A DNA stretch of 64,000 bases, taken from contig CAZNUN010000008.1 of assembly GCA_964576275.1 (NCBI GenBank), positions 32,441 through 96,440 of the forward strand, written 5' to 3'. Below are positions 1-50,005 of this stretch, in pieces. Below the pieces are notes generated by a model. That model made no database searches. It was not told the origin of the DNA and worked only from the letters and a program-made list of their open reading frames with translations. The stretch comes from an uncultured bacterium. Its GTDB lineage: Bacteria > Fidelibacterota > UBA2242. Positions within the stretch are counted from its first letter, which is position 1, and each line of letters begins with the position of its first letter. Position numbers and translations under genes: made by a program.

Positions 1-992
1 TTGCCGGTGCATTGCTGCATACTTTAAACCATTCCTTATTCAAGTCTTCCTTATTTTATGCGGCTGGCAATGTCTATCGGGCAATTCATACGCTGAACCT
101 GGAATCGCTGGGCGGATTATTCCGGAAAATGCCGCAAACTGCTATGCTATTCCTGCTGTCGGCCCTGGCGATCTGCGGATTGCCGCCTTTCAACGGTTTT
201 ATTTCGGAGTTTATTCTTTACGGCGGGCTGTACCAAGGCAGTCTGCAGGCATCTCCGGTGAAAGCCCTAATTCTCATGCTGTCAATTTTAGGATTGGCGC
301 TGATTGGCGGATTGGCGTTGCTCTGTTTTACAAAAGCCTTCGGGATAGTTTTTCTGGGAAATCAACGGAAATCTCTTCCGCAACAAGATTGGAAAGAAGG
401 CCCGGGCAATCTGATTCCGCTTTACATTAACAGCGGGCTGATCCTGGCAATCGGCCTGTTTCCGGCAACATTTGTAAAATTGCTGAGCGCTCCGCTGGCA
501 TTGTTCGTCCCGAATTTTAACCAGGCATTTTTTGATTTCGAACTTCTTCAAAATCTGCAACAAGTCAGCCGGGCGACTGTCGGTCTGTTTGCCGTGTCTT
601 TTATTGTGCTGGGGATCAGGTATCTTGTCACGCATAGAGCCGTTAGAGAGGTTGGACCGACGTGGGGCTGCGGATATACCGGCAGAATGGACAAGATGCA
701 ATACACTGCAACCTCTTTCGTGAGAATGTATCGCAAACTCGCTGCACCGGCATTGCTGGTTCACCGGAAAAATGTCGAAATCCACGAGATATTTCCGCAT
801 GAAAAGCGCACCTATGAAACTCACCCGGAGGATGCTCTGGAGATAAATCTGATCGATAAACCGATTAATTTATTACAACGTTTTCTCTCGCTTTTCAGGT
901 TTATCCAGAATGGAAAAATCCAAAATTACCTGTTGTATGGCTTGGTATTTCTCCTGTTGATCGGGCTGCTGAGCTGGAGCAAACTCATATAG
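1..992 (+). CDS. NuoL/HyfB(HycC)-like proton-translocating antiporter subunit of a complex-I/hydrogenase-4-like module; 5'-truncated by the window edge (frame is open to position 1 and the track start is TTG)
   Basis: Polytopic membrane protein with NuoL/M/N-family style helices ('LFYAAGNVYRAIHTLNLESLGG...MLFLLSALAICGLPPFNGFISEF'). First gene of a co-directional nuo/hyf-like operon. No stop upstream in frame. Confidence 0.55.
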   Translation, partial: AGALLHTLNHSLFKSSLFYAAGNVYRAIHTLNLESLGGLFRKMPQTAMLFLLSALAICGLPPFNGFISEFILYGGLYQGSLQASPVKALILMLSILGLALIGGLALLCFTKAFGIVFLGNQRKSLPQQDWKEGPGNLIPLYINSGLILAIGLFPATFVKLLSAPLALFVPNFNQAFFDFELLQNLQQVSRATVGLFAVSFIVLGIRYLVTHRAVREVGPTWGCGYTGRMDKMQYTATSFVRMYRKLAAPALLVHRKNVEIHEIFPHEKRTYETHPEDALEINLIDKPINLLQRFLSLFRFIQNGKIQNYLLYGLVFLLLIGLLSWSKLI

Positions 993-995
993 ATT

Positions 996-1901
996 ATGCA
1001 GGCTTTGGTACTAATATTATTAATAAGTTTGTTCTTTGGCGGAATAGTCATAAGAACCAAGAGCGTCTGTGCCGGCCGGAAGGGACCGGGAATATTTCAA
1101 CCGCTGAAAGACATCTGGCGGCTGATGCGCAAAGGTGCCATTTTCAGCAACACCGCGACTGTTCTGACCCGCATCGCGCCCTCGATCTACTTCGCTAGTG
1201 TATTGATTGCGGTAGCGTGTATTCCATTCGGGAATGTTAAGGGGCTGCTTTCCTTTCAGGGTGATCTCGTGTTTTTTGCGTATGCCCTGGCGCTGGGTAA
1301 GTTTTTCATGATTGTTGCGGCGCTGGACACCGGCAGCAGTTTCGAGGGGATGGGGGCCAGTCGCGAAGCTCACTTTTCAATGCTGACCGAACCGGCTTTC
1401 TTCGGAGTGATTGGCTCGCTGGCCTTATTTACCGGGCGTACTTCATTTCACGATATTTTTACCTGCTTGCATTTTGGGAATTATTTATCCTATGTATTGG
1501 GTTCGATCATACTGGTCATTTTTATTATAATAATGCTGGTCGAAAACAGCCGTATGCCGATTGACGATCCGAACACTCATCTGGAACTCACCATGATTCA
1601 TGAGGTGATGGTTTTGGATTACAGCGGATTCGACCTGGGGCTGATTCAGTACACAACCAACCTGAAGTTTGCGATGTACTCTGCTCTGATTGCCAATTTG
1701 TTCACCGGTATGCTGCCGGTCGTGCCGGAAATTCTGATATTTCTCGGAGCCGGCTTTGTATTGGCGGTAATAGTTGGCGGCGTAGAGTCGTTTACCGCCC
1801 GGTTGCGGATGGGCAGAAATCCACAGTTCATTTTTTTGCTGACCTCATGGGCATTGTTATTATTCCTGCTGGTTTTATTCATCACAGGGCGGTTCAGTTA
1901 A
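996..1901 (+). CDS. NuoH/HycD(HyfC)-like membrane subunit (complex I subunit 1 family)
   Basis: 'GPGIFQPLKDIWRLMRKG' resembles the QP(F/L)xD(x)xK loop of NuoH/HycD. About 8 TM helices. Separated by 4 nt from the previous gene. Confidence 0.6.
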   Translation: MQALVLILLISLFFGGIVIRTKSVCAGRKGPGIFQPLKDIWRLMRKGAIFSNTATVLTRIAPSIYFASVLIAVACIPFGNVKGLLSFQGDLVFFAYALALGKFFMIVAALDTGSSFEGMGASREAHFSMLTEPAFFGVIGSLALFTGRTSFHDIFTCLHFGNYLSYVLGSIILVIFIIIMLVENSRMPIDDPNTHLELTMIHEVMVLDYSGFDLGLIQYTTNLKFAMYSALIANLFTGMLPVVPEILIFLGAGFVLAVIVGGVESFTARLRMGRNPQFIFLLTSWALLLFLLVLFITGRFS

Positions 1902-2531
1902 ATGAAAGCCATTATCCTCATATTATTTGCCATTTCATTGTTGAATATTTCAATTTCGAATCGTCTGCGTGGTTTTGCCAGGATTCTCGCGTTCCAGGGT
2001 TTTTTGCTCTTTGTGCTGGCTTTTATCCAATTGCGTGAGGTTACCATTCTCAACCTGGTTTTCATCCTGCTTGAAACGCTTGTGTTCAAAACGATCGTTC
2101 TGCCGATTTTTCTGGATTACGTCATCAAGAAAAACCGGATGACACGGGAAACCGAACCTTACGTGCCATATTTCATTTCGCTATTAATTGTTTCAGCAAT
2201 TGTTCTGGCGTCCTTTATAATCGTCCAGCAAATCGAGGGACTGACCGGCAATACATTATTTTTTATCGTAGCGCTGTCCACTTTATTCACGGGATTGTAT
2301 ATCATCATTTCCCGTAAAAAACTGATCACACACATGATGGGTTATGTGGTCACGGAGAACGGGGTCTTTATTCTTTCACTGGCGATCGGGAATGAAATGC
2401 CCATGATGGTCAATACCGGTATTCTGATCGATCTGTTCATCGGCATTCTGGTAATGGGTATTTTCGTTAATAAGATCGGCGACGTGTTTCAAGAGGCCAA
2501 TAATGAATATCTCAGCCAGATAAGAGATTAA
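1902..2531 (+). CDS. Small polytopic membrane subunit, HyfE/MnhC-NuoK-like
   Basis: 209 aa and entirely hydrophobic helices. Directly abuts the flanking genes (stop/start adjacent). This position and size match hyfE in hyf/ech-type operons. Confidence 0.4.
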   Translation: MKAIILILFAISLLNISISNRLRGFARILAFQGFLLFVLAFIQLREVTILNLVFILLETLVFKTIVLPIFLDYVIKKNRMTRETEPYVPYFISLLIVSAIVLASFIIVQQIEGLTGNTLFFIVALSTLFTGLYIIISRKKLITHMMGYVVTENGVFILSLAIGNEMPMMVNTGILIDLFIGILVMGIFVNKIGDVFQEANNEYLSQIRD

Positions 2532-2532
2532 G

Positions 2533-3969
2533 ATGGTGCTTGGATTTTATTTCGGTATAGCGCTTTTAATCATTGCCGGCTTGTCCGTCAGCCGAAAAAT
2601 TAAGGGTTATATTGTTCTGCTGAGCCTGTTCAATCTCCTGCAATGGAGTCTTACGGTTTACGCTTATTTACATCTTAATTTCGAGACCGGTTTTTTCAAA
2701 GCCGATGCGCTGGCGGTTATTATGCTGATGGTGCTGAGCATCCTTTCAACGACATCTTCATATCACAGTATCTTTTATTTGCAGCATCATCACCGCTTGC
2801 ATTTCACTCCCGAACGAGCCCAGTCGATATATTACACCGGCCTCTGCCTGCTGATCATGGCGCAGACCGGCGCTTTTCTGGCCAGCCACATCGCCGTAAC
2901 CTGGATTTTCGTGGAAATCACGACCTTTGCCGCCACGGTCATGATTTACCATGAGCGCAGCGCCGAATCGATCGAAGCCGCCTGGAAATACCTGTTCGTT
3001 TGCTCGGTGGCGCTGACTTTGACATTTACCGGTATTCTGTTTCTGGGCATCGCAGCCGAAGAAGCCGGAACGGTTAATCTGTTTTACACTTCACTGGTCG
3101 CCCATGCTCCGGCTTTTAATGCATTCTGGCTGAAGATAGCCTTTCTTTTGATCCTGATCGGGTACAGCGCCAAGATGGGTATTTTCCCGATGCACACCGT
3201 CACGATTGACGCTCATACTGTCGCGCCGCCTCCGGTAAGCGCGTTTATCTCCACGACGCTGATGAATGTCGGTTTCGCAGGTATTTTCCGGATGTATGCG
3301 GTCATCGCTCCGACTTCTTCTTTTACTTGGGCCAAACATGTTCTGCTGATCGTTGGGATGTTATCTGTGTTCGTGGCGGTGGTTTATTTGGTCAGCGTCA
3401 GGCATTTCAAACGAATGTTCGCGTATTCCAGCCTGGAGAATATGGGACTGGTCGCCATCGGACTGGGAGTGGGCGGCCTGGCCTATTACGCCGCGATCCT
3501 GCATCTGATCTTGCATTCATTTACCAAAGCCAGTATGTTTTACCAGATTCAGCAGGTGCATCAGTTGTTTAGGTCTTACATCATCCGGAAAACGGGCGGC
3601 TATTTCAAGGCTTACCCGGCGGGCGCAATAGTCATGCTGTTGTGTTTTATCTGTATTGCAGGCATTCCACCGTCCGGGATGTTTATCAGTGAGTTTCTGC
3701 TGGTCGAGGCTATGTTCGCCGGCCGGATGTTCGTGATACTGGCCATTTTGCTTTTACTGCTCACATTCGCGGTCTGGGCGCTCGGGAAAAATTTCACGCA
3801 GCTGATCTTTTCCGAACCGGATCAATCGATCGAAGTCCAGTCCGAAACGCTCAATCCCGTTCACACCATTTCACAGTATGTCCTGCTGGGATTAGTGATC
3901 TATCTCGGTCTGAATCCGCCGCCGCAGATGGTCGCTCTGATTAATGCGGCTATTAACATCGTCCCATGA
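2533..3969 (+). CDS. NuoN/NuoM/HyfF-like proton-pumping antiporter subunit
   Basis: 478 aa, 14-TM-like profile. Contains 'KMGIFPMHTVTIDAHTVAPPPVSAFISTTLMNVG', the conserved broken-helix region (K...H...P) of the NuoM/N/L family. Confidence 0.6.
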   Translation: MVLGFYFGIALLIIAGLSVSRKIKGYIVLLSLFNLLQWSLTVYAYLHLNFETGFFKADALAVIMLMVLSILSTTSSYHSIFYLQHHHRLHFTPERAQSIYYTGLCLLIMAQTGAFLASHIAVTWIFVEITTFAATVMIYHERSAESIEAAWKYLFVCSVALTLTFTGILFLGIAAEEAGTVNLFYTSLVAHAPAFNAFWLKIAFLLILIGYSAKMGIFPMHTVTIDAHTVAPPPVSAFISTTLMNVGFAGIFRMYAVIAPTSSFTWAKHVLLIVGMLSVFVAVVYLVSVRHFKRMFAYSSLENMGLVAIGLGVGGLAYYAAILHLILHSFTKASMFYQIQQVHQLFRSYIIRKTGGYFKAYPAGAIVMLLCFICIAGIPPSGMFISEFLLVEAMFAGRMFVILAILLLLLTFAVWALGKNFTQLIFSEPDQSIEVQSETLNPVHTISQYVLLGLVIYLGLNPPPQMVALINAAINIVP

Positions 3970-5464
3970 TATTATGGAATTTGTAGAAATAAAAAACCAC
4001 GCCAGCATCGCTCTCTCTGCCATTCCGGTATTGGATTATGATTTTTTTCGGCGCCGGAATGTGGATTTGCTCGGCGATGAAAATAATCACTGTGTAGCTC
4101 TGTTTGGTTATCCATTCGGCAAATCTTTGCGTTTGATTTGCGGTATTGCCGACGACCGCAATGGGATAATCCGGATTTTATCAACTGTGATTAACCCGAA
4201 AGACGAATATCCGTCGCTTACGGCTCAGCGCCCGGCTTTGCATATTTTTGAGAGAGAATTGTATGAAAATTTCGGCATTCGCTACAGCGATCATCCCTGG
4301 TTGAAACCGGTCCGTTTTCCACAAAACGCACCCACAAATAAAAATATTCCCGACTACCCGTTTTACCGGATCGACAGCGAAGAACTGCACGAGGTGGGCG
4401 TCGGCCCCATTCATGCCGGAATCATCGAACCGGGACACTTTCGTTTTATCTGCAATGGAGAACAGATTCTGCACCTCGAAATTCAGCTGGGTTTCCAGCA
4501 CCGCGGAATCGAGCGCCTGTTTACGGAGAAGAAGGGTCTGCTCGAACGTGCGACCCTCGCGGAAAACATCGCCGGTGATACGGTCGTCGGGCATACGCTG
4601 GCTTTCGTAAATCTCTGGGAAAGCCTGTGCGGTTTCACGGTTGGCCGGGATTTGCAATTTGCCCGGACGCTGGCGCTCGAACTCGAACGGATTGCGATTC
4701 ATACCGGCGATCTCGCCGCCCTCTGCACCGACATCGGCTATCAGCTCGGCAATGCCGTCCTGGGGCGTTTGCGCACCCCGTTGATTAATTTCTTCCAGCA
4801 GTGGTGTGGCAACCGGCTGGCCAAAAGCCTGATTCGCGCCGGTAAAACCAATTTTTCTTTCACGACGGAACTGGCCGGAAAACTTAATGACATTCTAAGT
4901 GCTTATGAAGCCGATTTCCTGGAAATAGCCGACAAAGCCTTTCATCTGCCGACTATTCTGGCCCGCTTCGAGAAGACTGGAATTGTCACGACTCAACAGG
5001 CGGCCGCAATCGGCGCAGTGGGCATGACCGCCCGTGCCAGCGGATTAGTCCGCGATGTTCGGATTAGTCACCCGTTCGATTTGTACGGGGAACTGGGACA
5101 CCGACCGGTCGTCAAGCACCATGGGGATGTTTATTCGCGCGTCCAGGTCCGGAAGGAAGAGATCGGGCAGTCGCTCGGTTATATCCGAAAATTAATGCAG
5201 GAAATACCGGATGTTCAGCCGCTTCGAGAAATGGGTAAGCCGCAGCCGGACGCCCTGGCGATTTCCCTGACGGAGGGGTGGCGGGGCGAGATCTGCCATT
5301 GCGCCGTTACCGGTGAGGACGGCCAGCTTATTCATTACAAAATAACCGATCCCTCGTTGCACAACTGGCTGGCGCTGGCCCTGGCCGTGCGGAATAATGA
5401 GATTTCCGATTTCCCAATTTGCAATAAAAGTTTCAATCTGTCTTATTGCGGACACGATTTGTAA
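3944..5464 (+). CDS. NuoC-NuoD fusion / group-4 [NiFe]-hydrogenase large-subunit homolog (HycE/EchE-like) without the canonical L1 Ni-Fe cysteine ligands
   Basis: 'VGVGPIHAGIIEPGHFRFICNGEQILHLEIQLGFQHRGIERL' aligns with the NuoD/large-subunit N-terminus 'GPQHP...LRL...GE.V...P.IGYLHRG.EK'. At the position corresponding to L1 (RxCGxCxxxH) it reads 'IAGDTVVGHTLAF', with no Cys. The C-terminus reads 'DFPICNKSFNLSYCGHDL' instead of DPCxxCxxH. The N-terminal ~150 aa is NuoC-like. The start could instead be the M at 3974. Confidence 0.65.
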   Translation: MRLLTSSHDIMEFVEIKNHASIALSAIPVLDYDFFRRRNVDLLGDENNHCVALFGYPFGKSLRLICGIADDRNGIIRILSTVINPKDEYPSLTAQRPALHIFERELYENFGIRYSDHPWLKPVRFPQNAPTNKNIPDYPFYRIDSEELHEVGVGPIHAGIIEPGHFRFICNGEQILHLEIQLGFQHRGIERLFTEKKGLLERATLAENIAGDTVVGHTLAFVNLWESLCGFTVGRDLQFARTLALELERIAIHTGDLAALCTDIGYQLGNAVLGRLRTPLINFFQQWCGNRLAKSLIRAGKTNFSFTTELAGKLNDILSAYEADFLEIADKAFHLPTILARFEKTGIVTTQQAAAIGAVGMTARASGLVRDVRISHPFDLYGELGHRPVVKHHGDVYSRVQVRKEEIGQSLGYIRKLMQEIPDVQPLREMGKPQPDALAISLTEGWRGEICHCAVTGEDGQLIHYKITDPSLHNWLALALAVRNNEISDFPICNKSFNLSYCGHDL

Positions 5465-6231
5465 CCAGGTCGATCATGTTTAAAACACTCAGCATTTTAA
5501 TTCATCAGGGCAAACAGTACATACCGCAACCGACCGAGGCCGAAGTACCGGGAATATTCCGCGGCCGGCCGCTGATCGGCCTGGCGGACGTTGACGAATC
5601 CGCTTTGGCGGCGGTTTGCCCGGTTCAGGCCATCGGTGTCTCTCCGGTCAGCATTGATCTTGGCAAATGTACATTCTGCGGCGAATGCGCCCTGGCATTC
5701 CCGCACAAGGTCGGTTTTACCAAAGACTATAAACTGGCCACTAATGACCGTCGCCGGCTAATCATTTCAGCCGGTGACGACCAGCCGCTGCAAATCGATC
5801 CGGTATTGGTGCGGAAAGAGATTTTTAAATATTTCCGCGGCTCGCTGAAACTTAGGCAGGTTTCAGCAGGCGGCGATAATAGTTGTGAGCTGGAGCTGAA
5901 TGCCAGCGGTAACGTGAATTTCGACGTCGGGCGATACGGCATCGAGTTCGTGGCGTCGCCGCGCCATGCCGATGGTATCGTGATCACCGGCCCGATTACG
6001 AAAAATATGGCCGAGGCGCTGGAGATTTGCTACCAGGCAATTCCCGAACCGCGCATCGTTATTTTAGCCGGAACGGATGCCATCAGCGGCGGCATCTTGG
6101 CGGACAGTCCGGCGCTGGATCGCAGTTTCCTGGAGAAACATCCTGTCGATCTTTACCTGCCCGGCAATCCGGTGCATCCGCTGACTTTCCTAAACGGCGT
6201 GCTGGATCTCATCCGCACCCGTAAAACCTGA
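5446..6231 (+). CDS. NuoI-like ferredoxin domain fused to a NuoB/HycG-like small subunit, with degenerate Fe-S ligands
   Basis: N-terminal half: 'AAVCPVQAI' and 'CTFCGECALAFP', i.e. a single CP plus one CxxCxxC. C-terminal half: 'FVASPRHADGIVITGPITKNMAEAL', the NuoB signature GSPRHAD..VTG. 'GDNSCELE' stands in for CCxxE, 'AGTDAISGG' for GxCxxxGG, and 'LPGNPVHP' for PGCPP. An alternative start is the M at 5476. Confidence 0.6.
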   Translation: MRTRFVTRSIMFKTLSILIHQGKQYIPQPTEAEVPGIFRGRPLIGLADVDESALAAVCPVQAIGVSPVSIDLGKCTFCGECALAFPHKVGFTKDYKLATNDRRRLIISAGDDQPLQIDPVLVRKEIFKYFRGSLKLRQVSAGGDNSCELELNASGNVNFDVGRYGIEFVASPRHADGIVITGPITKNMAEALEICYQAIPEPRIVILAGTDAISGGILADSPALDRSFLEKHPVDLYLPGNPVHPLTFLNGVLDLIRTRKT

Positions 6232-9421: not shown

Positions 9422-10441
9422 TTACACGAATAAGTCGCTAAAGCGAGCCGCGGGACGGTTTTTCCAGTGGCCCTGATGATAAGCATAACTGACTAAGAGC
9501 GGCATGGTCAGAGTGGCTTCACCGTAAACCATTTGTTCGTACTTGGTATCGACTTTGCCCCAGGAACTGGCCTCCTTGAGAGTCGAGCCGGAGAGACCGC
9601 CGTCACGTTCGTCGGCTACAGTCAACTGTACGGCGTATTTGTGCATCGGTTTTTCAATTTCCAGCACGTCGGTAGCCACGACTACGTCCTGAGTGAAATT
9701 TTTCGGGACGCCGCCGCCAATCATCAAAATGCCGGTCTCTTCCGCGGCGATTTTGACTTTGGTAAGTTCCAGAAAATCCCGGGCGGAATCAATGGTGACC
9801 ATCGCGTCTTTGCGATTCCACTGGTGATGGATCAGGCCGAATCCAGCCGAACAATCGGAGAACGCCGGCACGAAAATCGGCACGCCTTTTTTATAGGCCG
9901 AATAGATAATCGATTTCTCGGTTTTAATACCGACTTTGTCGAGATATTTGCCCATTTCCCAGATAAATTCGCGCGATGAGAAAGGACGCGGCGGCAGAGA
10001 ATTGGCGATTTCGGCGACCGTCATATCGCAGACGCGCAGTTCGTCTTCGTCGATGTAGGTATCGTAGATACGGTCGATCGCCAGGTCGCGCAGTTCACTG
10101 TCGTCGCTGAACGGTGTGCCGACGTAATGCTTGAAACCGAGGGCTTCGAAGAAATCCTGGTCGACCATCAGAGCGCCGGTTGATACGATGGCGTCCACCA
10201 TATTGTTTTCGACCATATCGGCCACGACGTCTTTCAGTCCGGCGCTGAACAATGAACCGGCCAGGGTCAGGATAACCTTGCACTTTTCGTCTTTCAGCAT
10301 CCGGTCGTAAATATCGGCCGCGACGGCCAGATTGCGCGCCTGAAAGGCCATTTTTTCATAAGCCCGCAGGATCGGACGCGCGTCGAATGTTTTTATATCA
10401 ATATGTTCGACCACCTTTTGCAGATAATCGTTCTTTTTCAT
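9422..10441 (-). CDS. Deoxyhypusine synthase-like aminobutyltransferase (DHS family; likely homospermidine-synthase-type function in a bacterium)
   Basis: 'MVENNMVDAIVSTGA' matches DHS 'LVQHNMVDVLVTTAGG'. 'GILMIGGGVPKNF' matches 'GMIILGGGVVKHH'. 'EASSWGKV' matches the catalytic-Lys region 'EAVSWGKI'. Its ATG overlaps the agmatinase stop (ATGA). Confidence 0.75.
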   Translation of the reverse strand: MKKNDYLQKVVEHIDIKTFDARPILRAYEKMAFQARNLAVAADIYDRMLKDEKCKVILTLAGSLFSAGLKDVVADMVENNMVDAIVSTGALMVDQDFFEALGFKHYVGTPFSDDSELRDLAIDRIYDTYIDEDELRVCDMTVAEIANSLPPRPFSSREFIWEMGKYLDKVGIKTEKSIIYSAYKKGVPIFVPAFSDCSAGFGLIHHQWNRKDAMVTIDSARDFLELTKVKIAAEETGILMIGGGVPKNFTQDVVVATDVLEIEKPMHKYAVQLTVADERDGGLSGSTLKEASSWGKVDTKYEQMVYGEATLTMPLLVSYAYHQGHWKNRPAARFSDLFV

Positions 10442-11313
10442 TTAGTTGACTCCTTTGCATAAATCATACTTAAAGTTCGGTAAATGAGTTTAGCCGCCAG
10501 AAAATCGGGGGCTTTGTCGGACGGATTGGGCAATAGCTCGTTGACATCCATGCCGACGATACGCTTTTTTTGAATAACATGCGATATGACGTTGATGACG
10601 TCATACCAGCCCAGACCGCCCGGTTCGGGCGTGCCGGTCGAGGGCATAATCGCCGGATCGAAGACATCCAGGTCGACGGTCAGGTACACATTTTCCGTCA
10701 GATTGGCGCAGATTTTATCGAAGATTTCCGGTGAATTGTGATACTCGTGCGCGAAAATAACCCGCGATTTATCCAGACGCGGCAGTTCGCCGAGGTCCAT
10801 ACTGCGAATGCCGACCTGCATGATCGGACAGAATTCGCGGATGCGGGCCATGACGCAGGCATGATTGTACCGGCTGTGTTCGTACTCGTCGCGCAGGTCG
10901 GAGTGGGCGTCCAGCTGCAGAACCGACAGATTCGGAAAATGTTTGGCATGCGCCTGCGCCAGTCCGATCGAGATGGAATGTTCGCCGCCGAGGCTGACGA
11001 CGAATTTGCCGTCGTTCAGCAGCTGTGCGGTTTTAGCCGCGACGATTTGCGCCAGGTCTTCGGGTTTCTCCGGGCAGTCAACCGGCGGTAAAGTGGTGAT
11101 ACCCTGCCGGTAAACTTCCAAGCCGGTCTCGATGTCGTAGAGTTCCATGTTGGCGGAAGCAGCCAGTAAAGCCGCCGGGCCGTTGTCAGCCCCTTTTTGC
11201 CAGGTGGCGGTTCCGTCGTAAGGAATTGGCAAAATGGCTATCCGTGAAGATGGATACTGAGAATATTCCGACGCGAGCGCGCCGAAGGCTCCGGGTGAAA
11301 AGGCAGTCGGCAT
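10438..11313 (-). CDS. speB: Agmatinase / arginase-family ureohydrolase
   Basis: Arginase-fold Mn-binding motifs: 'GGEHSISIG', 'DAHSDLRDE' and 'SVDLDVFDPAIMPSTGTPEPGG'. Confidence 0.7.
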   Translation of the reverse strand: MPTAFSPGAFGALASEYSQYPSSRIAILPIPYDGTATWQKGADNGPAALLAASANMELYDIETGLEVYRQGITTLPPVDCPEKPEDLAQIVAAKTAQLLNDGKFVVSLGGEHSISIGLAQAHAKHFPNLSVLQLDAHSDLRDEYEHSRYNHACVMARIREFCPIMQVGIRSMDLGELPRLDKSRVIFAHEYHNSPEIFDKICANLTENVYLTVDLDVFDPAIMPSTGTPEPGGLGWYDVINVISHVIQKKRIVGMDVNELLPNPSDKAPDFLAAKLIYRTLSMIYAKESTK

Positions 11314-11328
11314 TTTTTTTATGTCAGA

Positions 11329-11718
11329 CTAAGGGTGTTGCGGGAAATCTTCGCCACGCTCTCTAAGATACCATTTGGGAGACTGGCTTTTAAAATATTC
11401 TATGATAAGATCCCGCGCCATATCCACGTCGAATGCCCGACAGGAGAAAAGGTCAACAAATGCAAATTTTTTACTGGGATATGTATGCACGGAAATGTGA
11501 CTTTCGGCAATGATCACGACGCCTGTAATACCTTCGTCGCCGGGGAAGCGTCCTTCGTACCGGAATACATAAGGCTGGGTAATTTTGGTCATGCCGATTT
11601 TGGGGGGGAGTTCGTTTAAAAGTTTGAAGCAAGCTTCGAGACTGTCTAAAACCGCTGGTTCACAGTCATTTAAATCCAGCATTAAGTGGGGTCCATAGCC
11701 ATACTTTGTTTCTGCCAT
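11329..11718 (-). CDS. speH: S-adenosylmethionine decarboxylase proenzyme, class 1b (pyruvoyl-dependent, SpeH/SpeD type)
   Basis: 'GVVIIAESHISVHTYPSKKFAFVDLFSCRAF' contains the ES(H) self-cleavage site of the small AdoMetDC family. The track ORF extends to 11820; the start was trimmed to ATG 11718 (MAETKYG), with 'GGAGGG' 11 nt upstream. Confidence 0.6.
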   Translation of the reverse strand: MAETKYGYGPHLMLDLNDCEPAVLDSLEACFKLLNELPPKIGMTKITQPYVFRYEGRFPGDEGITGVVIIAESHISVHTYPSKKFAFVDLFSCRAFDVDMARDLIIEYFKSQSPKWYLRERGEDFPQHP

Positions 11719-11919
11719 TTCGCATAAACCCTCCATTAATGAGTTAATCACGACACACAGTTCAAACCGATATGAGGCATCGTTTTGAAATCTGTAAAAA
11801 AACGCGCTATTATACGTCATTTTTTTTATTTTTCAAACAAAAATTATTCAGAGAAAACAAGATGATTTTCCGACGGGAGGCGAGGAGAAGCCAATGTTAA
11901 AGTTGCTAAAATATTTTTA

Positions 11920-11966: not shown

Positions 11967-12587
11967 ATGAGTTTCCAAGGTATGAAAGATGAAAATAAAA
12001 AATTGACACCAGCCGTCGCCTACGCCCGCCAATTTATCCTGGCCAACGGCACACATGGACTGAATCTCGATCAACTAACTGCCGACCTGCACATCGCCAA
12101 GAAAACCATTTACAAAGAATTTGCCACCAAAGATCAATTTATCGAGTATGTTCTGTTTGACATTTATCGCGAACTCTTTACTGAAACCCGGGCGGTGCAA
12201 TTAGATAAAAAGAACCCATTGCAATGTTTCTATGAATTAATGAAAGTGCTTTTCCGGCATGTTTCGCAGATCAATCCAAAGACAGTTCTGGATGTCAAAT
12301 TATTTTTTCCGCGAGTGTGGAAGGAGATCGAGGAATTCGAACAGGAAGTAATCAACCGCATATTAGACTCTTTTCAGAAAGCGGACGAATTAGGTCTGTT
12401 GCGCAAGAAATTCAATCTGAAATTCACCGCTGATTTTATTGTTAGGATGCTGGAAAACACGTTTCAGCCGGAGCTGTTTATTAACGCGCCCTATTCAATT
12501 GCCGACATGATTCAGATATTTGTAGATATAATCATGAATGGAATTATGGATAAAAAATTCACCTTTAATTTTTCGGATGCTGAATGA
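11967..12587 (+). CDS. TetR/AcrR-family transcriptional regulator
   Basis: N-terminal HTH 'GLNLDQLTADLHIAKKTIYKEFATKDQFIEYVL' fits the TetR_N pattern. 206 aa. First gene of a translationally coupled operon. Confidence 0.6.
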   Translation: MSFQGMKDENKKLTPAVAYARQFILANGTHGLNLDQLTADLHIAKKTIYKEFATKDQFIEYVLFDIYRELFTETRAVQLDKKNPLQCFYELMKVLFRHVSQINPKTVLDVKLFFPRVWKEIEEFEQEVINRILDSFQKADELGLLRKKFNLKFTADFIVRMLENTFQPELFINAPYSIADMIQIFVDIIMNGIMDKKFTFNFSDAE

Positions 12588-14866
12588 TTAAGAAAATTAT
12601 CGAATTCGACCTGAAATACCCGCGCACGATCATCGCCGCGTGTATCCTGCTAACATTACTGATGGGCTGGAGTATTCCACGCATCCAGCTGGAGCCGGAT
12701 GTCAAAGCCCTGATGCCGCAGGATTTCGAGATCATAAATTCCATGAAAGAGATGGAAGATACGTTTGGCGGCAACGATCTGGTCGTGGTTTCGATTACAT
12801 CAGAGAATATCTTCTCGTTGGCGACGCTGGAGAAAATTGAAGCCATGACGGCCGAAATCGAAACGCTGGCGACGGTTGATCAGGTGGTTTCGATTACGAA
12901 TGTCCCGGACGTCGTAGGTACTGCCGATGGCTTTGAAGTTCACGAAATGATTGAGGATTTGCCGACGACGGTCAGCCAGATTGATTCCCTCAAAAAGCGC
13001 ATCGCTGATAATCGCATGATCTACGGGACATTAGTTTCGGAGGATTTCCAAAAAGCCGGGATTATTGCATATCTGGATGTCGCCGGACATAAGAACACCG
13101 ACAATGAAATATATGACACCTTCATGGCGCTTAAGCATAAATATGAGGGTCCCGAAAAGATACATATGGCCGGGTTGCCTTTAACCCGTCGGGAAGTGTC
13201 CGCCACGATGACTTCGGATGTTAAAAAACTTTTTCCGTACGGGATAACTCTGATGATTCTGCTGTTGGTTTTTACTTTCCACAGCTGGACGGGCGCCTTT
13301 TTACCTTTTACCGTTGTGATAATGTCAATCGTGTTCACGATCGGGCTAATGGTCATGGTCGGAGTGAAGATGACTGTGGTCGAGATGCTGATTCCGGTGA
13401 TGCTGATCGCAATTGCGAACAGTTATAGCATTCAGGTTATCACCCAATATTTCGTGGAGTATTTCAATAATCCCAAAGCCGATAAGGACAATCTTATCCG
13501 GCTGATTTTGTCCTATCTGACGACGCCGGTGCTGTTGTCCGGATTTACGACGCTGGTCGGATTCCTCAGTCTGCGGTCGCATATTTTACCGCCGGCGAAA
13601 AATCTCGGATTGTTGTGTGCCTGTGGAACGACGATGGCCTATATCTACAGCCTGACCTTCATTCCGGCGGCGCTGAAACTGCTCGATTTTCCGGCGACTC
13701 TGAAAGCTGCCAGTTCGCATGAACGCACCAGTCGGTTTATGCAAGGCTGGGGGCGCTTTTTCATTCGTTTTCGCAAACCGTTCTTGATTGCCTGCCTGCT
13801 GGGAATTATCGGTGTGTCAACTGGAATGACCCGCATTATCGTGGATACCAATCCGATTGCATACTGGAAGAAATCGGCTGAAATCCGCCAGAGCAACGAT
13901 GTCATCGACCGGAATTTCGGCGGGAGTTCGACGATTTCTATCCTGGCGACCGGCGATATTAAAGATCCGGAATTTCTGCGCAAGATCGAAAGTCTGTGCA
14001 CGTTTCTGGAGAGCCAGCCGGCTGTGACGCGCGCCAATTCGATTGTGGACATGCTAAAACGTATGAACCAGGCCTTTCACGGCGACAGCGTCCAGTATAA
14101 TATCATCCCGGCGACTACCGAAGAGGTCGCCCAGTATCTTTTTCTGTATTCTTTGACCGGCGATACGAAAGATCTGGACCGCTTTGTGGATTACGACTAT
14201 ACCCAGGCGCAAATTCTGGCGCGGGTGAATGACTCCAGCTCGAAGACCTCTTATAAACTCTATACCGACACACAAGATTTTATCGCTAATAACATGGGAA
14301 CGGAAAATTTCCCGTCGGTTTCCGGGATGGCGCCGCTGATCGGGGTTTTATCGAAATTGGTTGTAGATGGACAAATTCGCAGTCTGGCGCTTTCGATTGT
14401 CGCGGTTTTTATCATTGTGGCGATTGCCTTCCGTTCCACGGTTGCCGGACTGATTTCCATCGTTCCACTCAGCGCGGCGGTGGTATGCCTGTTTGGAGTG
14501 ATGGGTTATGTTGGCATCACGCTGAATATGGCCACCGCCCTGATTTCCAGCATCATGATTGGCATTGGCATTGATTACACGATTCATTTTATCTTTCGTT
14601 TTCGCCTGGAAGCTAGGAAAGACGGAGATGCGGAACAAGCCGCTATCCGAACAATGACCACAAGCGGAAAAGGAATTGTTTATAACGCGGTTGCGGTTAT
14701 AATCGGTTTTACGGTATTGATGCTTTCCGGATTCGAGCCGATTTTCTTCTTTGGTTTTTTAATTGTGTTTTCGATCGTCGGCTGTTTATTCGGAGCGCTA
14801 ACGATTCTGCCGTCTTTGCTGATATTGACCAAACCGGGTTTTATTTTTGGAAAAAGGAGTAAATGA
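12584..14866 (+). CDS. MMPL/RND-superfamily exporter (two 6-TM bundles with large periplasmic loops)
   Basis: 760 aa with duplicated halves. RND/SSD-like TM regions ('...PVMLIAIANSYSIQVITQYF...' and '...SSIMIGIGIDYTIHFIFRF...'). ATGA overlap with tetR. Confidence 0.7.
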   Translation: MIKKIIEFDLKYPRTIIAACILLTLLMGWSIPRIQLEPDVKALMPQDFEIINSMKEMEDTFGGNDLVVVSITSENIFSLATLEKIEAMTAEIETLATVDQVVSITNVPDVVGTADGFEVHEMIEDLPTTVSQIDSLKKRIADNRMIYGTLVSEDFQKAGIIAYLDVAGHKNTDNEIYDTFMALKHKYEGPEKIHMAGLPLTRREVSATMTSDVKKLFPYGITLMILLLVFTFHSWTGAFLPFTVVIMSIVFTIGLMVMVGVKMTVVEMLIPVMLIAIANSYSIQVITQYFVEYFNNPKADKDNLIRLILSYLTTPVLLSGFTTLVGFLSLRSHILPPAKNLGLLCACGTTMAYIYSLTFIPAALKLLDFPATLKAASSHERTSRFMQGWGRFFIRFRKPFLIACLLGIIGVSTGMTRIIVDTNPIAYWKKSAEIRQSNDVIDRNFGGSSTISILATGDIKDPEFLRKIESLCTFLESQPAVTRANSIVDMLKRMNQAFHGDSVQYNIIPATTEEVAQYLFLYSLTGDTKDLDRFVDYDYTQAQILARVNDSSSKTSYKLYTDTQDFIANNMGTENFPSVSGMAPLIGVLSKLVVDGQIRSLALSIVAVFIIVAIAFRSTVAGLISIVPLSAAVVCLFGVMGYVGITLNMATALISSIMIGIGIDYTIHFIFRFRLEARKDGDAEQAAIRTMTTSGKGIVYNAVAVIIGFTVLMLSGFEPIFFFGFLIVFSIVGCLFGALTILPSLLILTKPGFIFGKRSK

Positions 14867-15222
14867 TGACCTCTGAGCGTCGAGATAAAAATATCGCCCG
14901 TTCAATTCTAATTGTCTCAGGCGGGATTGTGATTTATTGGCTTTACGAGGCGATTGTCTGGCTGGTTCACTGGCTAAGCACTGCCGGTTTGAAAGCCGGA
15001 GTGGGAGTGAATTTCGGAGAATTTTGCCTGGACAATCTGGGCATTATTCTAGTCGTTTATGTTATAATCTGTCTGCAAATTGCCGGCGTTGTGGAGTTCC
15101 GCCAGCGCAGAAATTTTACGGAGGCGTTTTTTCTGGGAGTCATTCTGACTCCGATATTAATGCCGGTTTATATGAGATTAAAAGAGAAAGGCTTCTTCAA
15201 GGCCAAAAGGAGGTTTGAATGA
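14863..15222 (+). CDS. Small integral membrane protein (3 TM), operon member
   Basis: 119 aa, hydrophobic. Overlaps both neighbours by 4 nt. Confidence 0.4.
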   Translation: MMTSERRDKNIARSILIVSGGIVIYWLYEAIVWLVHWLSTAGLKAGVGVNFGEFCLDNLGIILVVYVIICLQIAGVVEFRQRRNFTEAFFLGVILTPILMPVYMRLKEKGFFKAKRRFE

Positions 15223-16016
15223 AAAGATATTTTTCGTTGTTATTAATGTTAGCGCTTATTGTGCTTTTTGCTAATCCAGGTTGGGCGCAGATGTCCGGGC
15301 GTGACATTATGTTGAAAGTCGAAAAACAACAAGAGGTCAAAGCCCGGGTGGTTAAATCGAAAATGATTTTAGTTAATAAGCAAAATAAAACCCGTGAGCG
15401 GGATGTCCTTCAATATACCAAATCGGTCAACGATCCCAACGGCATCGACGATAAAATTCTGGTGTTTTTCGAATATCCGGCAGACATCCGCGGAACCGGC
15501 TTACTGATGATTTCATACACTGACATCAAGAAAGACGACGATCGCTGGCTTTACCTGCCGGCTTTGAAAAAAGTCCGCCGGATCGCGGGCGAGAGCAAGA
15601 ACGAATACTTCATGGGAACCGATTTTACCTACGATGATATGGGTGGCCGCGGCATCGATCAGGACACCCATAAATTGCTGGGCGAGGAAACGATTGACGG
15701 AGTAAAATGTTACAAAATCGAGTCGGTTCCTGTTGATAAGAATGATTTATACAGTAAGAAAATCGGCTGGGTAATCGCTGATAAATGGGTTCATTTGAAA
15801 GTTGAGTTTTACGATCGTAAAGGCCAGCTCCTGAAAACCATGCAGGCCACGGACATCCGCAATGTTTCGGGAGTCTGGCTGCAGTTTAATCTGGAGATGA
15901 CGAATTTTGCCGAAAATCATAAGACTATTCTGAAAATTCTAGAAGCTAAAATCAACGAACCAATCGACGACCAGATATTTACTACCACAGCCCTGGAGCG
16001 CGGAGGCATCAAATGA
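15219..16016 (+). CDS. LolA-like 'outer-membrane lipoprotein-sorting' family protein, the periplasmic partner typical of MMPL exporters
   Basis: Signal peptide. 'DDRWLYLPALKKVRRIAGESKNEYFMGTDFTYDDM' is characteristic of the LolA-like family found next to MMPL transporters. Confidence 0.5.
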   Translation: MKRYFSLLLMLALIVLFANPGWAQMSGRDIMLKVEKQQEVKARVVKSKMILVNKQNKTRERDVLQYTKSVNDPNGIDDKILVFFEYPADIRGTGLLMISYTDIKKDDDRWLYLPALKKVRRIAGESKNEYFMGTDFTYDDMGGRGIDQDTHKLLGEETIDGVKCYKIESVPVDKNDLYSKKIGWVIADKWVHLKVEFYDRKGQLLKTMQATDIRNVSGVWLQFNLEMTNFAENHKTILKILEAKINEPIDDQIFTTTALERGGIK

Positions 16017-22162: not shown

Positions 22163-22219
22163 TTTTCGCCTCCTTTTTGTCCAATTAAAATTTATAGGCA
22201 AATTTATTAATAATCAACA

Positions 22220-24007: not shown

Positions 24008-24017
24008 ATTTGCTCCT

Positions 24018-25274: not shown

Positions 25275-25287
25275 CTTTTTCTCCTTT

Positions 25288-26529: not shown

Positions 26530-26681
26530 AGAAACCTCATCATTTATTTCCGCAATACTTAAAAACGACAATTCATCTATGACAAATAGCATTCCAAAAT
26601 CTTCCGACGGAGAAAACCTGTCCGGGATAGACAAACTCTCAGATTTCTGAGACTAACGCCGAAAAATTGAGAGAAGCTGAA

Positions 26682-41700: not shown

Positions 41701-41708
41701 GTCATTGA

Positions 41709-41734
41709 TCCCGCATCGCGGGGAATTGCCCCTA
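41709..41734 (+). repeat. Degenerate REP-like element ('cccgcatcgcggggaattgcccctac') just upstream of the RAYT start
   Basis: Palindrome 'cccgc-atc-gcggg' plus a shared 'gcccctac' tail. Coordinates +/-2. Confidence 0.4.
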
Positions 41735-41795
41735 CGGAATCGGCACGATATACCGCGCTGCTACTTATTGAACGTCCTCCATGAAGGTTATCTCT

Positions 41796-45043: not shown

Positions 45044-45046
45044 AGC

Positions 45047-45511: not shown

Positions 45512-45539
45512 TTTAAAATCTCCCTTATTTATAAAGTAA

Positions 45540-46325: not shown

Positions 46326-46338
46326 ATTTTTACCATCG

Positions 46339-48642: not shown

Positions 48643-48704
48643 ACCTTCAAAATATTCAGGACTGGCTATCTTAATAGACAGCCAGTCCTTTTTTAATCAA
48701 GTCA

Positions 48705-49886: not shown

Positions 49887-50005
49887 TCTCTTTTAATTTC
49901 AAAGAAACTTCATTAAAATCATTGCGGAATGAGTGTAATCTCTTCGGAGATTACGATTGTTCGGCCCGGAGAAAATGCGCAATCATTAACTCCGGGCTTC
50001 TGCTT

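Follow-up and report, generated by a model that had tools for sequence, protein, structure and literature searches.

What does a complex built like a group-4 hydrogenase do once its large subunit has lost the ligands of the Ni-Fe site? This question is raised by six closely packed + strand open reading frames at positions 1-6231 of the window, the 64,000-nucleotide stretch of DNA that was analysed. The original prediction described these genes as a NuoL/NuoH/HyfE/NuoN/NuoC-NuoD/NuoI-NuoB module of Hyf-type architecture, and this description held, as the Pfam and NCBIfam domains of all six frames agree with it and the gene order matches hyfB-C-E-F-G-(H)-I. The window edge cuts the first gene, ehrA; the contig upstream of position 1, which had been named as worth inspecting, was examined in L001, a contig identical over window 1-6231 and matching from L001 position 6028. 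A further 341 codons are located there, giving a full ehrA (L001:5004-7019) that encodes 671 aa. This is the first gene of the operon, and it is preceded by a 140-bp gap and an ars-like cluster (ArsR, ArsP, LMW-phosphatase, thioredoxins, DsbD_TM, and SBF/Acr3); neither further subunits nor hyp genes are present in the upstream region of L001. With the upstream contig added, the six genes form a complete, self-contained ehrABCDLS operon.

The ehrA frame (12/3-992) carries Proton_antipo_M (PF00361), has hydrogenase-4 subunit B as its best NCBIfam match, and encodes a C-terminal extension, 'WGCGY'. EhrC matches the hydrogenase-4 membrane subunit NF008556 (1.5e-17) and only weakly PF00420 (NuoK), while EhrS contains PF01058 (Oxidored_q6) and Fer4, with a partial ferredoxin/NuoI match, and is recognised by the NCBIfam families NuoB, NuoI, and FHL iron-sulfur subunit. 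The start of ehrL is most likely the ATG at 3974 (496 aa, identical to protein P0001) rather than an upstream ATG at 3944; of the previously proposed span 3944-5464, the end therefore stands and the start most likely does not. The start of ehrS is most likely the ATG at 5476 (251 aa, identical to protein P0271) rather than the TTG at 5446, because homologues begin with the same 'M..L.IL.HQGKQYIP'.

Table 1. Genes of the ehr operon and sequence elements within them (window coordinates)
Feature	Position	Strand	Description
ehrA	1..992	+	HyfB/HycC/NuoL-type antiporter-like subunit; last 330 codons in window
ehrB	996..1901	+	NuoH/HycD/HyfC-like, peripheral-arm anchor; NADHdh PF00146, 5.9e-36
ehrC	1902..2531	+	HyfE-like small membrane subunit, C-terminal half NuoK-like
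ehrD	2533..3969	+	HyfF/NuoN-type antiporter-like; NCBIfam hydrogenase-4 subunit F, 5e-72
ehrL	3974..5464	+	NuoC-NuoD fusion, HycE-like 'large subunit'; PF00329 Complex1_30kDa and PF00346 Complex1_49kDa
EhrL beta1-beta2 loop VGVGPIHAGIIEPGHFRF	4394..4447	+	In complex I and hydrogenases, this element extends to the membrane interface
Degenerate L1 motif 'NIAGDTVVGH'	4565..4594	+	Aligns to HycE 'RVCGICGFAH' (hydrogenase RxCGxCxxxH)
Degenerate L2 motif 'NLSYCGHDL'	5435..5461	+	Extreme C-terminus; 'NLSYCG' aligns to HycE 'DPCYSC'
ehrS	5476..6231	+	HycF/NuoI-like ferredoxin domain (residues ~1-100) fused to NuoB/HycG-like domain (~118-248)
Sole surviving [4Fe-4S] motif of EhrS	5617..5688	+	C48 (ferredoxin motif 1 'CP') and C65-x2-C68-x2-C71 (motif 2)
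Old proximal (N2-type) site of EhrS	5875..6177	+	D134, C137, D201, N231, plus H234

The Ni-Fe ligands of EhrL were checked by phmmer alignment to the solved E. coli HycE (7z0s_E; 6.7e-37), which was also the top Foldseek match (TM (TMq) 0.87) of an AF2 model with a pLDDT of 92.8. Consistent with the by-eye reading in the original prediction, both L1 cysteines are lost, with A and T in their place, and the C-terminal DPCxxC motif is gone, S and G occupying the two L2 ligand positions; neither CxxC pair is therefore present. The leftover Cys in L2 is out of register, and across the family its position is occupied by C, S, or A. More than 8000 EhrL homologues were found, and in a set of 119 aligned full-length sequences, comprising the query and its nearest 50%-identity cluster representatives, both pairs are missing from 114. 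The sequences without both pairs have in common the signature E-x-[IV]-[SA]-G-D-[ST] ... DFP-x-x-NKSFNLSY-x-G-x-DL. The L1 consensus reads E-x-[IV]-[SA]-G-D-[ST]-x-x-x-H; 105 of 112 sequences carry its Asp. L2 reads 'LSY[CSA]G[HN]DL' in Ehr versus 'LCYSCxDR' in sister true hydrogenases.

[quoted passage not shown] Identities to the Ehr subunits of Geomonas L077 are 36, 43, 34, 30, 41, and 43%, and this range of 30-43%, together with the loss of both pairs in 114/119 aligned sequences, bears out the Ehr-type reading of the original prediction. The Geomonas cluster is laid out as EhrA-1/A-2/B/C/D/L/S, with names from the Geobacter literature (PMC7894505); the Geobacter sulfurreducens Ehr is GSU0739-45 (Coppi 2005 and Marreiros 2013, as cited in PMC7894505 and PMC6349859). 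Subunits and their order, the NuoC-NuoD and NuoI-NuoB fusions, the loss of L1 and L2 cysteines, and the signature motifs are all common to the window and Geobacteraceae, and the order A(-A)-B-C-D-L-S is kept across phyla. The fusions had been called unusual, but NuoC-NuoD is the normal HycE/HyfG architecture, and NuoI-NuoB occurs in nearly every locus examined and has already been described for Ehr (PMC6349859, Supplementary Note 4). E. coli Hyf/Hyc (7Z0S) is similar in gene order, with HycE as the best sequence and structure match of EhrL, and HycD, HycC, and HycG as best or second-best matches of EhrB, EhrA, and EhrS; however, the Ehr operon lacks hyfA, hyfD, hyfJ, hyfR, formate dehydrogenase, and hyp genes, and its products lack the Ni-Fe ligands and the proximal cluster, with the HyfH part fused to HyfI and carrying one cluster.

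It is highly improbable that the complex is a cryptic hydrogenase, still producing or using H2 at a non-canonical site; such activity was claimed on genetic grounds for the Azorhizobium Hyq 'endo-hydrogenase'. The Hyq operon (hyqRBCEFGI) likewise has six structural genes in the order B-C-E-F-G-I and encodes a 504-aa NuoC::NuoD large subunit (PMC3357923); it is reported to have an H2 phenotype in vivo (PMC2650096, PMC3357923), and hyq and ehr have been grouped together as systems without canonical Ni-Fe ligands (PMC4758237). However, by description, on which the comparison with Hyq was based, HyqI retains four N2-type cysteines (55, 58, 112, and 152), positions that imply a short small subunit without a ferredoxin-like domain, whereas EhrS here does not keep them. 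Moreover, all four Ni-Fe cysteines and the proximal cluster ligands are missing, EhrL has no C-terminal extension for endopeptidase processing, and Ehr complexes are classed as non-hydrogenases in HydDB (PMC5037454). The original prediction had seen no hyp, protease, or electron-input genes downstream; similarly, a Pfam scan of ORFs of at least 150 aa revealed no hyp or endopeptidase gene in the whole 64-kb window, and hyp genes are absent across ~69 kb when the upstream region, with its ars-like cluster immediately before the operon, is included.

A more striking feature of the locus, which the original prediction missed, is the loss of the ligands of two clusters from the small subunit. In non-Bacteroidota Ehr, including that of Geobacteraceae, EhrS carries 12 cysteines, the ligands of three [4Fe-4S] clusters; in contrast, a single motif is left in the Bacteroidota clade that includes the window, and the ligands of the proximal (N2-type) cluster and of one of the two ferredoxin-type clusters are gone. 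By alignment, the surviving motif corresponds to the N6b/medial cluster and the lost ferredoxin-type cluster is the distal one. The operon belongs to a Bacteroidota subclade that lacks the ligands for the Ni-Fe, proximal, and distal sites. C48, C65, C68, and C71 are present in 121/121 close homologue clusters and in 59/59 metagenome relatives, and the remaining four of the eight ferredoxin Cys positions are A/E, E, L, and F in the clade. At the old proximal site, the alignment shows D, C, D, and N of EhrS in place of the cluster-ligand cysteines of MbhJ (1e-22) and HycG (1.5e-19), where non-Bacteroidota Ehr have C, C, C, and C. The conserved pattern is Asp/x/Asp/Asn, as all 121 close homologue clusters have D134 and D201 and 120 of them N231, while C137 varies among relatives; H234 is (nearly) invariant throughout the Ehr family. 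One member of the clade, L022, is an exception and retains all 12 cysteines.

The stepwise loss of catalytic metal ligands could be taken as the mark of an operon in decay, a hydrogenase remnant without function, but this reading is effectively refuted by the pattern of conservation. The six frames are intact and closely packed, the functional membrane residues are kept, and the substitutions are common to thousands of homologues (more than 8000 for EhrS). Identities of 44-65% are maintained across Bacteroidota orders, and the cofactor-free domain is the best conserved: mean pairwise identity within the Fe-S-poor clade is 65% for EhrS (73% for its NuoB-like domain), followed by EhrB (58%), EhrL (56%), EhrC (49%), EhrA (47%), and EhrD (44%).

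A redox-driven pump is also rather unlikely. In such a pump, a low-potential donor of the ferredoxin or flavodoxin type would reduce the remaining cluster, and electrons would pass to a quinone, a sulfur compound, or another acceptor at the EhrL/EhrS/EhrB interface, with ion translocation as in Mbh, MBS, and complex I. Ehr complexes have been treated as putative redox-coupled ion pumps (PMC6349859), all three clusters are kept in non-Bacteroidota Ehr, the surviving EhrS motif is invariant, and true redox pumps show a similar conservation of coupling loop and membrane residues; the EhrL beta1-beta2 loop is near-invariant family-wide and is also present in sister true hydrogenases. However, the proximal ligands are replaced across the clade, with the exception of L022, and the distal cluster, the one near the surface, has gone as well, so that the remaining cluster would have neither an entry nor an exit relay. 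In complex I structures, N6b lies ~10 Å from N2, and N2 lies ~12 Å from the substrate site; a lone N6b-type cluster would therefore be >20 Å from the pocket, beyond the physiological tunnelling range. In addition, EhrL has Gly at the position aligned to the quinone-binding Tyr87 of Thermus thermophilus Nqo4, and the operon has no linked genes for a donor or acceptor: electron-input, formate dehydrogenase, CODH, and hyp genes do not adjoin it at this locus. Pyrococcus MBS is ferredoxin-driven and retains a three-cluster wire. As an Mbh-derived sulfane-sulfur reductase (MBS/Mbx, 6U8Y), it is likewise a group-4 descendant that has lost Ni-Fe catalysis and retained the ion-translocating chassis, but it is only a distant relative (6u8y_L, 3.7e-15; 6u8y_J, 6.6e-10) and, unlike the window Ehr, has Mrp-type additional subunits.

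With no electron wire to the large/small-subunit interface, there would be no redox drive at the old active site, and we tentatively propose that the complex is a redox-independent, gradient-driven ion translocator whose peripheral arm serves as a coupling or gating module. The best PDB matches of EhrA are MbhH (2e-52), HycC (3e-50), and MrpA (5e-31), and those of EhrB are HycD (7z0s_D, 2e-20) and MbhM (4e-17). The following residues are each conserved in 80% or more of the sequences: the Glu of TM5 and the Lys of TM7, TM8, and TM12 in EhrA (E142, K220, K255, and K356), the membrane Glu of the 'ENG' motif of EhrC, and, in both Ehr types, E117, R123, E124, E183, D190, D191, E197, and E203 of EhrB and E128, K214, and K332 of EhrD. 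As judged from these alignments, the membrane arm has kept its full set of canonical proton-channel residues, which makes a gradient-driven translocator the most likely reading; likewise, the strong conservation despite the loss of the Ni-Fe site and two clusters makes ion movement without redox chemistry probable. EhrA and EhrD, joined by EhrB and EhrC, would form the ion-moving membrane arm and could carry out Mrp-like cation/proton exchange or a related role in ion homeostasis, driven by a gradient. The hydrogenase-derived peripheral arm would sit on EhrB as a non-redox coupling or gating cap, and the lone [4Fe-4S] cluster may have a structural role or, at most, sense redox conditions or O2.

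Mrp (Mnh/Pha) offers a parallel, with antiporter-like subunits that have matching Glu/Lys channel residues and no apparent redox drive. The Ehr complex is proposed to work like Mrp, yet it lies outside the Mrp family; Mrp has neither the NuoH-like subunit nor the large peripheral arm of hydrogenase origin. Homologues of MrpB, MrpE, MrpF, and MrpG are missing from Ehr, which counts against a Mrp-like reading. Furthermore, since Mrp needs no peripheral arm to work, antiport alone leaves ~750 peripheral residues, the best conserved part of the complex, unexplained, and their conservation points to a function of the pocket. The four-Cys cluster, present in every sequence, would also fit residual electron transfer with a docking partner encoded elsewhere, and because L022 still has all 12 cysteines, cluster loss may alter function less than assumed. 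The Asp/Asp/Asn/His replacement site could be a putative metal site that perhaps restores some chemistry, again at odds with redox-independent translocation.

A function of the pocket is central to a further explanation, gradient-driven non-redox catalysis in the old Ni-Fe pocket, such as vectorial CO2 hydration or the uptake of inorganic carbon, on the model of DabAB or cyanobacterial NDH-1/CupA, or, in a variant, a Na+ cycle partnered with BicA-type SulP bicarbonate transporters; this we regard as quite improbable. Such catalysis is consistent with the high conservation of the peripheral arm and of EhrL E197, D202, and D495 around the old site. Ehr operons are flanked by DabA and DabB in L018, which is of the Fe-S-poor type, and in L056; one SulP subfamily adjoins EhrS in L018, L025, and L056, with further SulP genes in the vicinity of Ehr in L008, L050, L052, and L084. 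However, a DabA or SulP neighbour was found in 0 of 80 close metagenomic relatives and in neither the window nor L085 or L086, which makes the association sporadic, and the complex lacks a carbonic-anhydrase-like subunit and a pocket-invariant His/Cys set of Zn-type ligands. No neighbouring gene recurs across the 80 close metagenomic loci and two Chitinophagales genomes. Non-Bacteroidota Ehr operons usually have an HTH_17-PTS_EIIA_2 regulator gene just upstream, whereas the window clade does not, and the window operon has one EhrA copy, compared with two in the Geomonas cluster and in about one third of the relatives' complete operons.

Six open reading frames, all on the forward strand and nearly abutting, occupy positions 1-6231, and each was assigned by family searches to a subunit of the complex I/group 4 hydrogenase-like module that had been predicted. 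The 5' side was read from contigs encoding an identical large-subunit protein, one of which (L001) was verified as identical to window 1-6231. In these contigs, the full first gene, ehrA, encodes 671 aa and is separated by a 140-bp gap from an ars-like cluster directly upstream of window position 1 (ArsR, ArsP permease, LMW phosphatase/ArsC-type, two thioredoxin-like, DsbD_TM and Acr3/SBF genes); no other gene belongs to the operon. This cluster is not kept beside Ehr elsewhere, and on the 3' side the operon is followed by a GyrI-like gene on the opposite strand and then by unrelated genes. The original prediction had stopped at position 1; inspection of the identical contigs beyond it revealed no extra subunits and no hyp genes, ruling out both. 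No hyp or endopeptidase genes were found among open reading frames of at least 150 aa across the 64-kb window (Pfam) or among genes called in the 5 kb upstream, and no donor, acceptor or maturation genes were found linked to the operon in the window locus, in 80 close metagenomic loci or in two cultured/complete-genome relatives (L085, Flavihumibacter profundi, and L086). Rfam returned no riboswitch or RNA leader in the window and six related loci, one tRNA excepted, and promoter and terminator consensus matches were no more frequent than in shuffled sequence.

Coordinates of the features discussed (window positions unless a locus handle, L, names another contig or genome locus), with mean pairwise identity within the Fe-S-poor clade for the Ehr subunits
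Feature	Position	Strand	Assigned by	Mean identity
EhrA, HyfB/NuoL-like antiporter subunit	start of window, 5' part cut off	+	Pfam, NCBIfam	47%
EhrB, NuoH/HyfC-like subunit	996-1901	+	Pfam, NCBIfam	58%
EhrC, HyfE-like subunit	1902-2531	+	Pfam, NCBIfam	49%
EhrD, HyfF/NuoN-like subunit	2533-3969	+	Pfam, NCBIfam	44%
EhrL, NuoC-NuoD fusion	to 5464, likely start 3974	+	Pfam, NCBIfam	56%
EhrS, partial-ferredoxin/NuoI-NuoB fusion	to 6231, likely start 5476	+	Pfam, NCBIfam	65% (NuoB-like domain 73%)
EhrL H39-C40	4088-4093	+		
EhrL C56-G57	4139-4144	+		
ars-like cluster	L001:166-4864			
Polyamine trio	9422-11820	-		
TetR-like regulator and transporter set	11967-17299	+		
Serpin/DUF3160 set	19700-26634	-		
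DUF3160 protein, T9SS-sorted	19700-22201	-		
601-aa protein	22220-24025			
Tandem serpin genes	24018-25298, 25288-26634	-		
Low-GC stretch	41011-50000			
IS200-like Y1 transposase fragment	41011-41700			
Peptidase_C25 protein	58556-63463	+		
HTH_17-PTS_EIIA_2 gene	L052:4380-5069			
HTH_17-PTS_EIIA_2 gene	L077:2115-2759			
HTH_17-PTS_EIIA_2 gene (locus labelled Bacteroidetes)	L036:4284-4991			
DabA/DabB/SulP	L018:4886-9270	-		
DabA/DabB/SulP	L018:17974-20289	+		
DabA/DabB/SulP	L056:3782-12371	+		
DabA/DabB/SulP	L025:12417-14090	+		

The best PDB matches of the large subunit, EhrL, were HycE (6.7e-37) and MbhL (1e-35), those of the small subunit, EhrS, were MbhJ (1e-22) and HycG (1.5e-19), and those of the membrane arm were HycD for EhrB (2e-20) and MbhH (2e-52) and HycC (3e-50) for EhrA; complex I subunits scored far lower than these relatives from E. 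coli formate hydrogenlyase and Pyrococcus Mbh, including NuoD-type matches of EhrL. Loss of the Ni-Fe Cys ligands, previously judged by eye, was confirmed by residue-level alignment to solved HycE, in which 'RVCGICGFAH' of L1 lies opposite 'NIAGDTVVGH' of EhrL (Cys to Ala and Thr) and 'DPCYSC' of L2 lies opposite 'NLSYCG' (Ser and Gly at the ligand positions), so that all four Ni-Fe ligand positions are non-Cys. In group 4 [NiFe]-hydrogenases (Hyc/Hyf/Ech/Mbh), by contrast, L1 reads RxCGxCxxxH, where the Ehr consensus is [SA]-G-D-[ST], and L2 reads (D)PCxxCxx(H/R). An ordinary group 4 hydrogenase was ruled out by the alignments to solved HycE, MbhL, MbhJ and HycG. Many group 4 hydrogenases carry a cleavable C-terminal extension after L2; EhrL ends in 'NLSYCGHDL', with the stop codon following at once. 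The AlphaFold2 model of EhrL was confident (pLDDT 92.8), and the top structural match of this predicted structure was HycE (7z0s_E, TM 0.87), spanning the entire NuoC and NuoD regions. The beta1-beta2 loop, which in complex I and hydrogenases extends to the membrane interface, is nearly invariant in EhrL (VGPIHAGIIEPGHFRF) and identical to the loop of the sister true hydrogenases.

An exhaustive profile-free search with EhrL yielded 5102 cluster representatives, and an alignment was made of 119 full-length sequences (the query and its 118 nearest representatives). Both CxxC pairs were missing in 114 of the 119, and these share the signature E-x-[IV]-[SA]-G-D-[ST]-x-x-x-H and DFP-x-x-NKSFNLSY-x-G-x-DL; a small number of sister sequences carry RxCGxC and LCYSCxDR and are true hydrogenases, and in a neighbour-joining tree EhrL fell inside Ehr, apart from them. 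The nearest named homologues belong to Chitinophagales and Saprospirales. All six proteins were homologous over their full length to those of Geomonas limicola (L077, Geobacteraceae; BLASTP; A 36%, B 43%, C 34%, D 30%, L 41%, S 43%), whose cluster is laid out as EhrA-1/A-2/B/C/D/L/S, the arrangement named for Geobacter sulfurreducens GSU0739-45 (PMC7894505). When scanned with one genome per species, Ehr loci were present in Bacteroidota, Melainabacteria, Verrucomicrobiota, Planctomycetota, Desulfobacterota, Spirochaetota, Omnitrophota, Gemmatimonadota and others, and the gene order was A(-A)-B-C-D-L-S in all of them. Ehr complexes are described as group 4-related complexes without Ni-Fe ligands and of unknown function (PMC6349859, PMC10284858, PMC7304191), and HydDB leaves them out as non-hydrogenases (PMC5037454). 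The window operon has the Hyf-like gene composition with both fusions, a large subunit without Ni-Fe Cys and full-length homology to the Geobacter-type cluster. The published description covers this composition, including the NuoC-NuoD and NuoI-NuoB fusions (PMC6349859 Supplementary Note 4), and the Ehr-type classification of the original prediction therefore holds, upheld also by the HycE alignment, the shared signature, the Geomonas homology and the tree. The fusions themselves, however, had been called unusual, and both proved to be the family norm in the loci examined, in the 7z0s_E structural match and in that Supplementary Note. The operon is thus a correctly identified member of a known, unsolved family, one of thousands.

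What had not been part of the original prediction is the loss of clusters in EhrS, namely the proximal cluster and one ferredoxin-type cluster. In alignments to MbhJ and HycG, EhrS retains a single Cys of the proximal (N2-type) cluster, C137, with D134, D201 and N231 in place of the other three, whereas group 4 hydrogenases have a four-Cys proximal [4Fe-4S] cluster. Since position 137 varies, C137 is not constrained as a ligand would be. Of the ferredoxin Cys in the N-terminal HycF/NuoI-like domain, C48 (the 'CP' of motif 1) and C65, C68 and C71 (the CxxCxxC of motif 2) are the ones left; together they make up one complete four-Cys cluster motif, equivalent to the N6b/medial cluster, and the other four are gone. 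The EhrS of Geobacteraceae and most phyla, in contrast, has 12 Cys and three [4Fe-4S] clusters, although a three-cluster EhrS is not certainly part of the Ehr family definition. Cys patterns were compared by taxon in 51 EhrS sequences from genomes. The four proximal-cluster Cys were present in every complete non-Bacteroidota EhrS and all 12 Cys in 19 of 29, with some motif-1 ferredoxin Cys missing in a few loci (e.g., Melainabacteria and two Desulfobacterota); EhrS of the Bacteroidota clade had one cluster motif and Asp/x/Asp/Asn at the proximal site. The latter pattern was found in 59/59 close metagenomic relatives and in L085 and L086. Among 121 homologue clusters, D134, D201 and the four kept Cys were present in all, N231 in 120 and H234 in 119. 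The AF2 model of EhrS had a pLDDT of 66, and of less than 50 in the three former cluster loops; it was judged poor and for this reason kept out of the fold search. No mention of these Bacteroidota Cys losses was found in the searchable literature, although an earlier mention is possible, as Marreiros et al. 2013 (BBA) lies outside its scope.

One Bacteroidota MAG (L022) encodes an EhrS with all 12 Cys that is 55-58% identical to Fe-S-poor EhrS, together with the clade-specific 'HC ... CC' motif in EhrL, and from its sequence it looks like a living evolutionary intermediate within the Bacteroidota Ehr clade. Of 200 bootstrapped neighbour-joining replicates, 162 put L022 inside the clade and 38 put it outside, a split that does not separate single from repeated cluster loss.

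The 'HC ... CC' motif is specific to the Bacteroidota clade and lies on two adjacent beta-strands of the EhrL NuoC-like domain; among 70 close relatives, H39 was present in 68, C40 in 70, C56 in 67 and C57 in 64. As a candidate for a new Cys/His metal site it was rejected: the window EhrL has Gly57 and the all-Cys L022 shares the motif, so the motif does not explain the Fe-S loss.

Within the Fe-S-poor clade, the ranking of the subunits by mean pairwise identity indicates that the peripheral arm (EhrL and EhrS) is the most constrained part of the complex and not a decaying appendage. Membrane-arm charged residues, scored as conserved when present in at least 80% of sequences in both Ehr types, comprised E142 (TM5), K220 (TM7), K255 (TM8) and K356 (TM12) of EhrA, E128, K214 and K332 of EhrD, a Glu/Asp/Arg set in EhrB and a membrane Glu in EhrC. 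This conservation pattern excludes a dead relic of a hydrogenase operon and, by every sequence criterion, the stripped complex is still functional. These data add to the family a Bacteroidota-wide, Fe-S-depleted Ehr variant whose putatively cofactor-free small subunit is its most conserved protein.

In complex I, N6a, N6b, N2 and the substrate site are spaced about 10-12 A from one another. Because the equivalents of both N6a and N2 are missing, the surviving EhrS cluster would have no relay to the surface and none to the pocket, the latter more than 20 A away. Complex I (Nuo/Nqo) also has the N2 cluster in NuoB, quinone-site Tyr/His in NuoD, and separate NuoA/J/K and an electron-input module, whereas the window operon lacks the N2 ligands and NuoA, NuoE, NuoF and NuoG genes and has EhrL Gly201 at the position of the quinone-site Tyr, Nqo4 Tyr87. 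A redox pump with an unnamed donor and acceptor would fit the tradition of the Ehr family and the invariance of the remaining cluster, but is unlikely given the broken electron wire. Less likely still is a cryptic hydrogenase of the kind claimed for Azorhizobium Hyq (PMC2650096, PMC3357923); Hyq (hyqRBCEFGI), compared here by description, shares the gene order of the window operon, but its small subunit has the four N2-type Cys and an H2 phenotype is reported for it in vivo, and the absence of both Ni-Fe ligands and proximal cluster makes this reading very unlikely for the window complex.

We tentatively favor a complex that would not be redox-driven and would run on an existing ion gradient, much as an Mrp-type cation/proton exchanger or a device for ion homeostasis does; the former hydrogenase module would have been kept to cap EhrB in a coupling or gating role, and the one remaining cluster would be structural or a sensor. 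Such redox-independent exchange seems to us a realistic possibility, held with less than even confidence. The Mrp antiporter has seven subunits (MrpA-G) and no peripheral arm, whereas the operon shares with it only MrpA/D-like and NuoK-like parts, without MrpB, E, F and G, and with a peripheral arm; the complex may work like Mrp but is not an Mrp member. Antiport alone leaves the best-conserved peripheral arm unexplained, so that the pocket, or else the Asp/Asp/Asn/His site, likely has a specific function. A bolder proposal, which we hold with less confidence than ion exchange, is that the former Ni-Fe pocket and the Asp/Asp/Asn/His site have taken on a function other than redox chemistry (such as binding of ions or substrates, gating, or catalysis driven by a gradient) that is coupled to the antiporter modules; the Bacteroidota Ehr would then be the first member of the complex I/membrane-hydrogenase superfamily with a complete, highly constrained peripheral arm and a dismantled electron wire.

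Neighboring genes were clustered over 80 genome loci and 80 metagenome loci, and the only neighbors found were an HTH_17-PTS_EIIA_2 regulator of non-Bacteroidota Ehr and sporadic SulP and DabAB, none of them in the 80 close relatives. In at least 26 loci among L035-L084, including Geomonas, the former gene (about 215-260 aa) is co-directional with ehrA and lies directly 5' of it; its product seems to be a PTS(Ntr)-type regulator dedicated to classical three-cluster Ehr, and none of the Fe-S-poor (type II) loci examined contained the gene. DabA, DabB and one SulP (BicA-like) subfamily adjoin Ehr in a few distant genomes (L018, L025 and L056), with further SulP neighbors elsewhere, and could point to gradient-driven non-redox catalysis or a link to inorganic carbon; however, 0/80 close relatives have a DabA, DabB or SulP neighbor, and this lead was downgraded to one that we consider improbable, more so than a redox pump.

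Ehr occurs in many bacterial phyla and has been dubbed a 'missing link' between membrane hydrogenases and complex I; to our knowledge, no function has been demonstrated for any Ehr complex. The window points to a large, abundant Bacteroidota clade in which two of three Fe-S clusters are gone, with members among soil and water Chitinophagales and Saprospirales, Marinilabiliales, and gut Rikenellaceae and Alistipes, and cultured carriers such as Flavihumibacter profundi and Ancylomarina sp. The question is thereby narrowed to the role of a hydrogenase-like arm that would be unable to pass electrons, and for work on structure and transport the clade provides a naturally 'redox-off' form of the complex I coupling machine. 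If the non-redox reading is true, complex I-type coupling machinery can run without any redox chemistry. Routine annotation names these genes as 'Ni,Fe-hydrogenase III' or 'NADH-quinone oxidoreductase' subunits, and metagenomic estimates of H2 metabolism are inflated as a result.

Elsewhere in the window, a polyamine trio encodes a deoxyhypusine-synthase-like protein (homospermidine-synthase type), an arginase/agmatinase family protein and S-adenosylmethionine decarboxylase. It is followed by genes for a TetR-like regulator, an MMPL/RND-type transporter, a LolA-like/DUF1329 protein and a DUF1302 protein, a set that probably serves outer-membrane lipid or hydrophobe export. Serpin pairs are uncommon in bacteria; here two tandem serpin genes are co-directional with that of a T9SS-sorted DUF3160 protein, and between the pair and that gene lies one whose product has no Pfam match. 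A stretch with a GC content of 0.37-0.43, compared to about 0.48 elsewhere, carries two paralogous pairs of CarboxypepD_reg/TonB-type receptor and DUF4249 genes, is adjoined by an IS200-like Y1 transposase fragment and may be acquired DNA. T9SS sorting domains encoded in the window were taken to mark the organism as Bacteroidota, and one of them forms the C-terminus of a 1635-aa gingipain-like Peptidase_C25 protein with CARDB/Ig domains.
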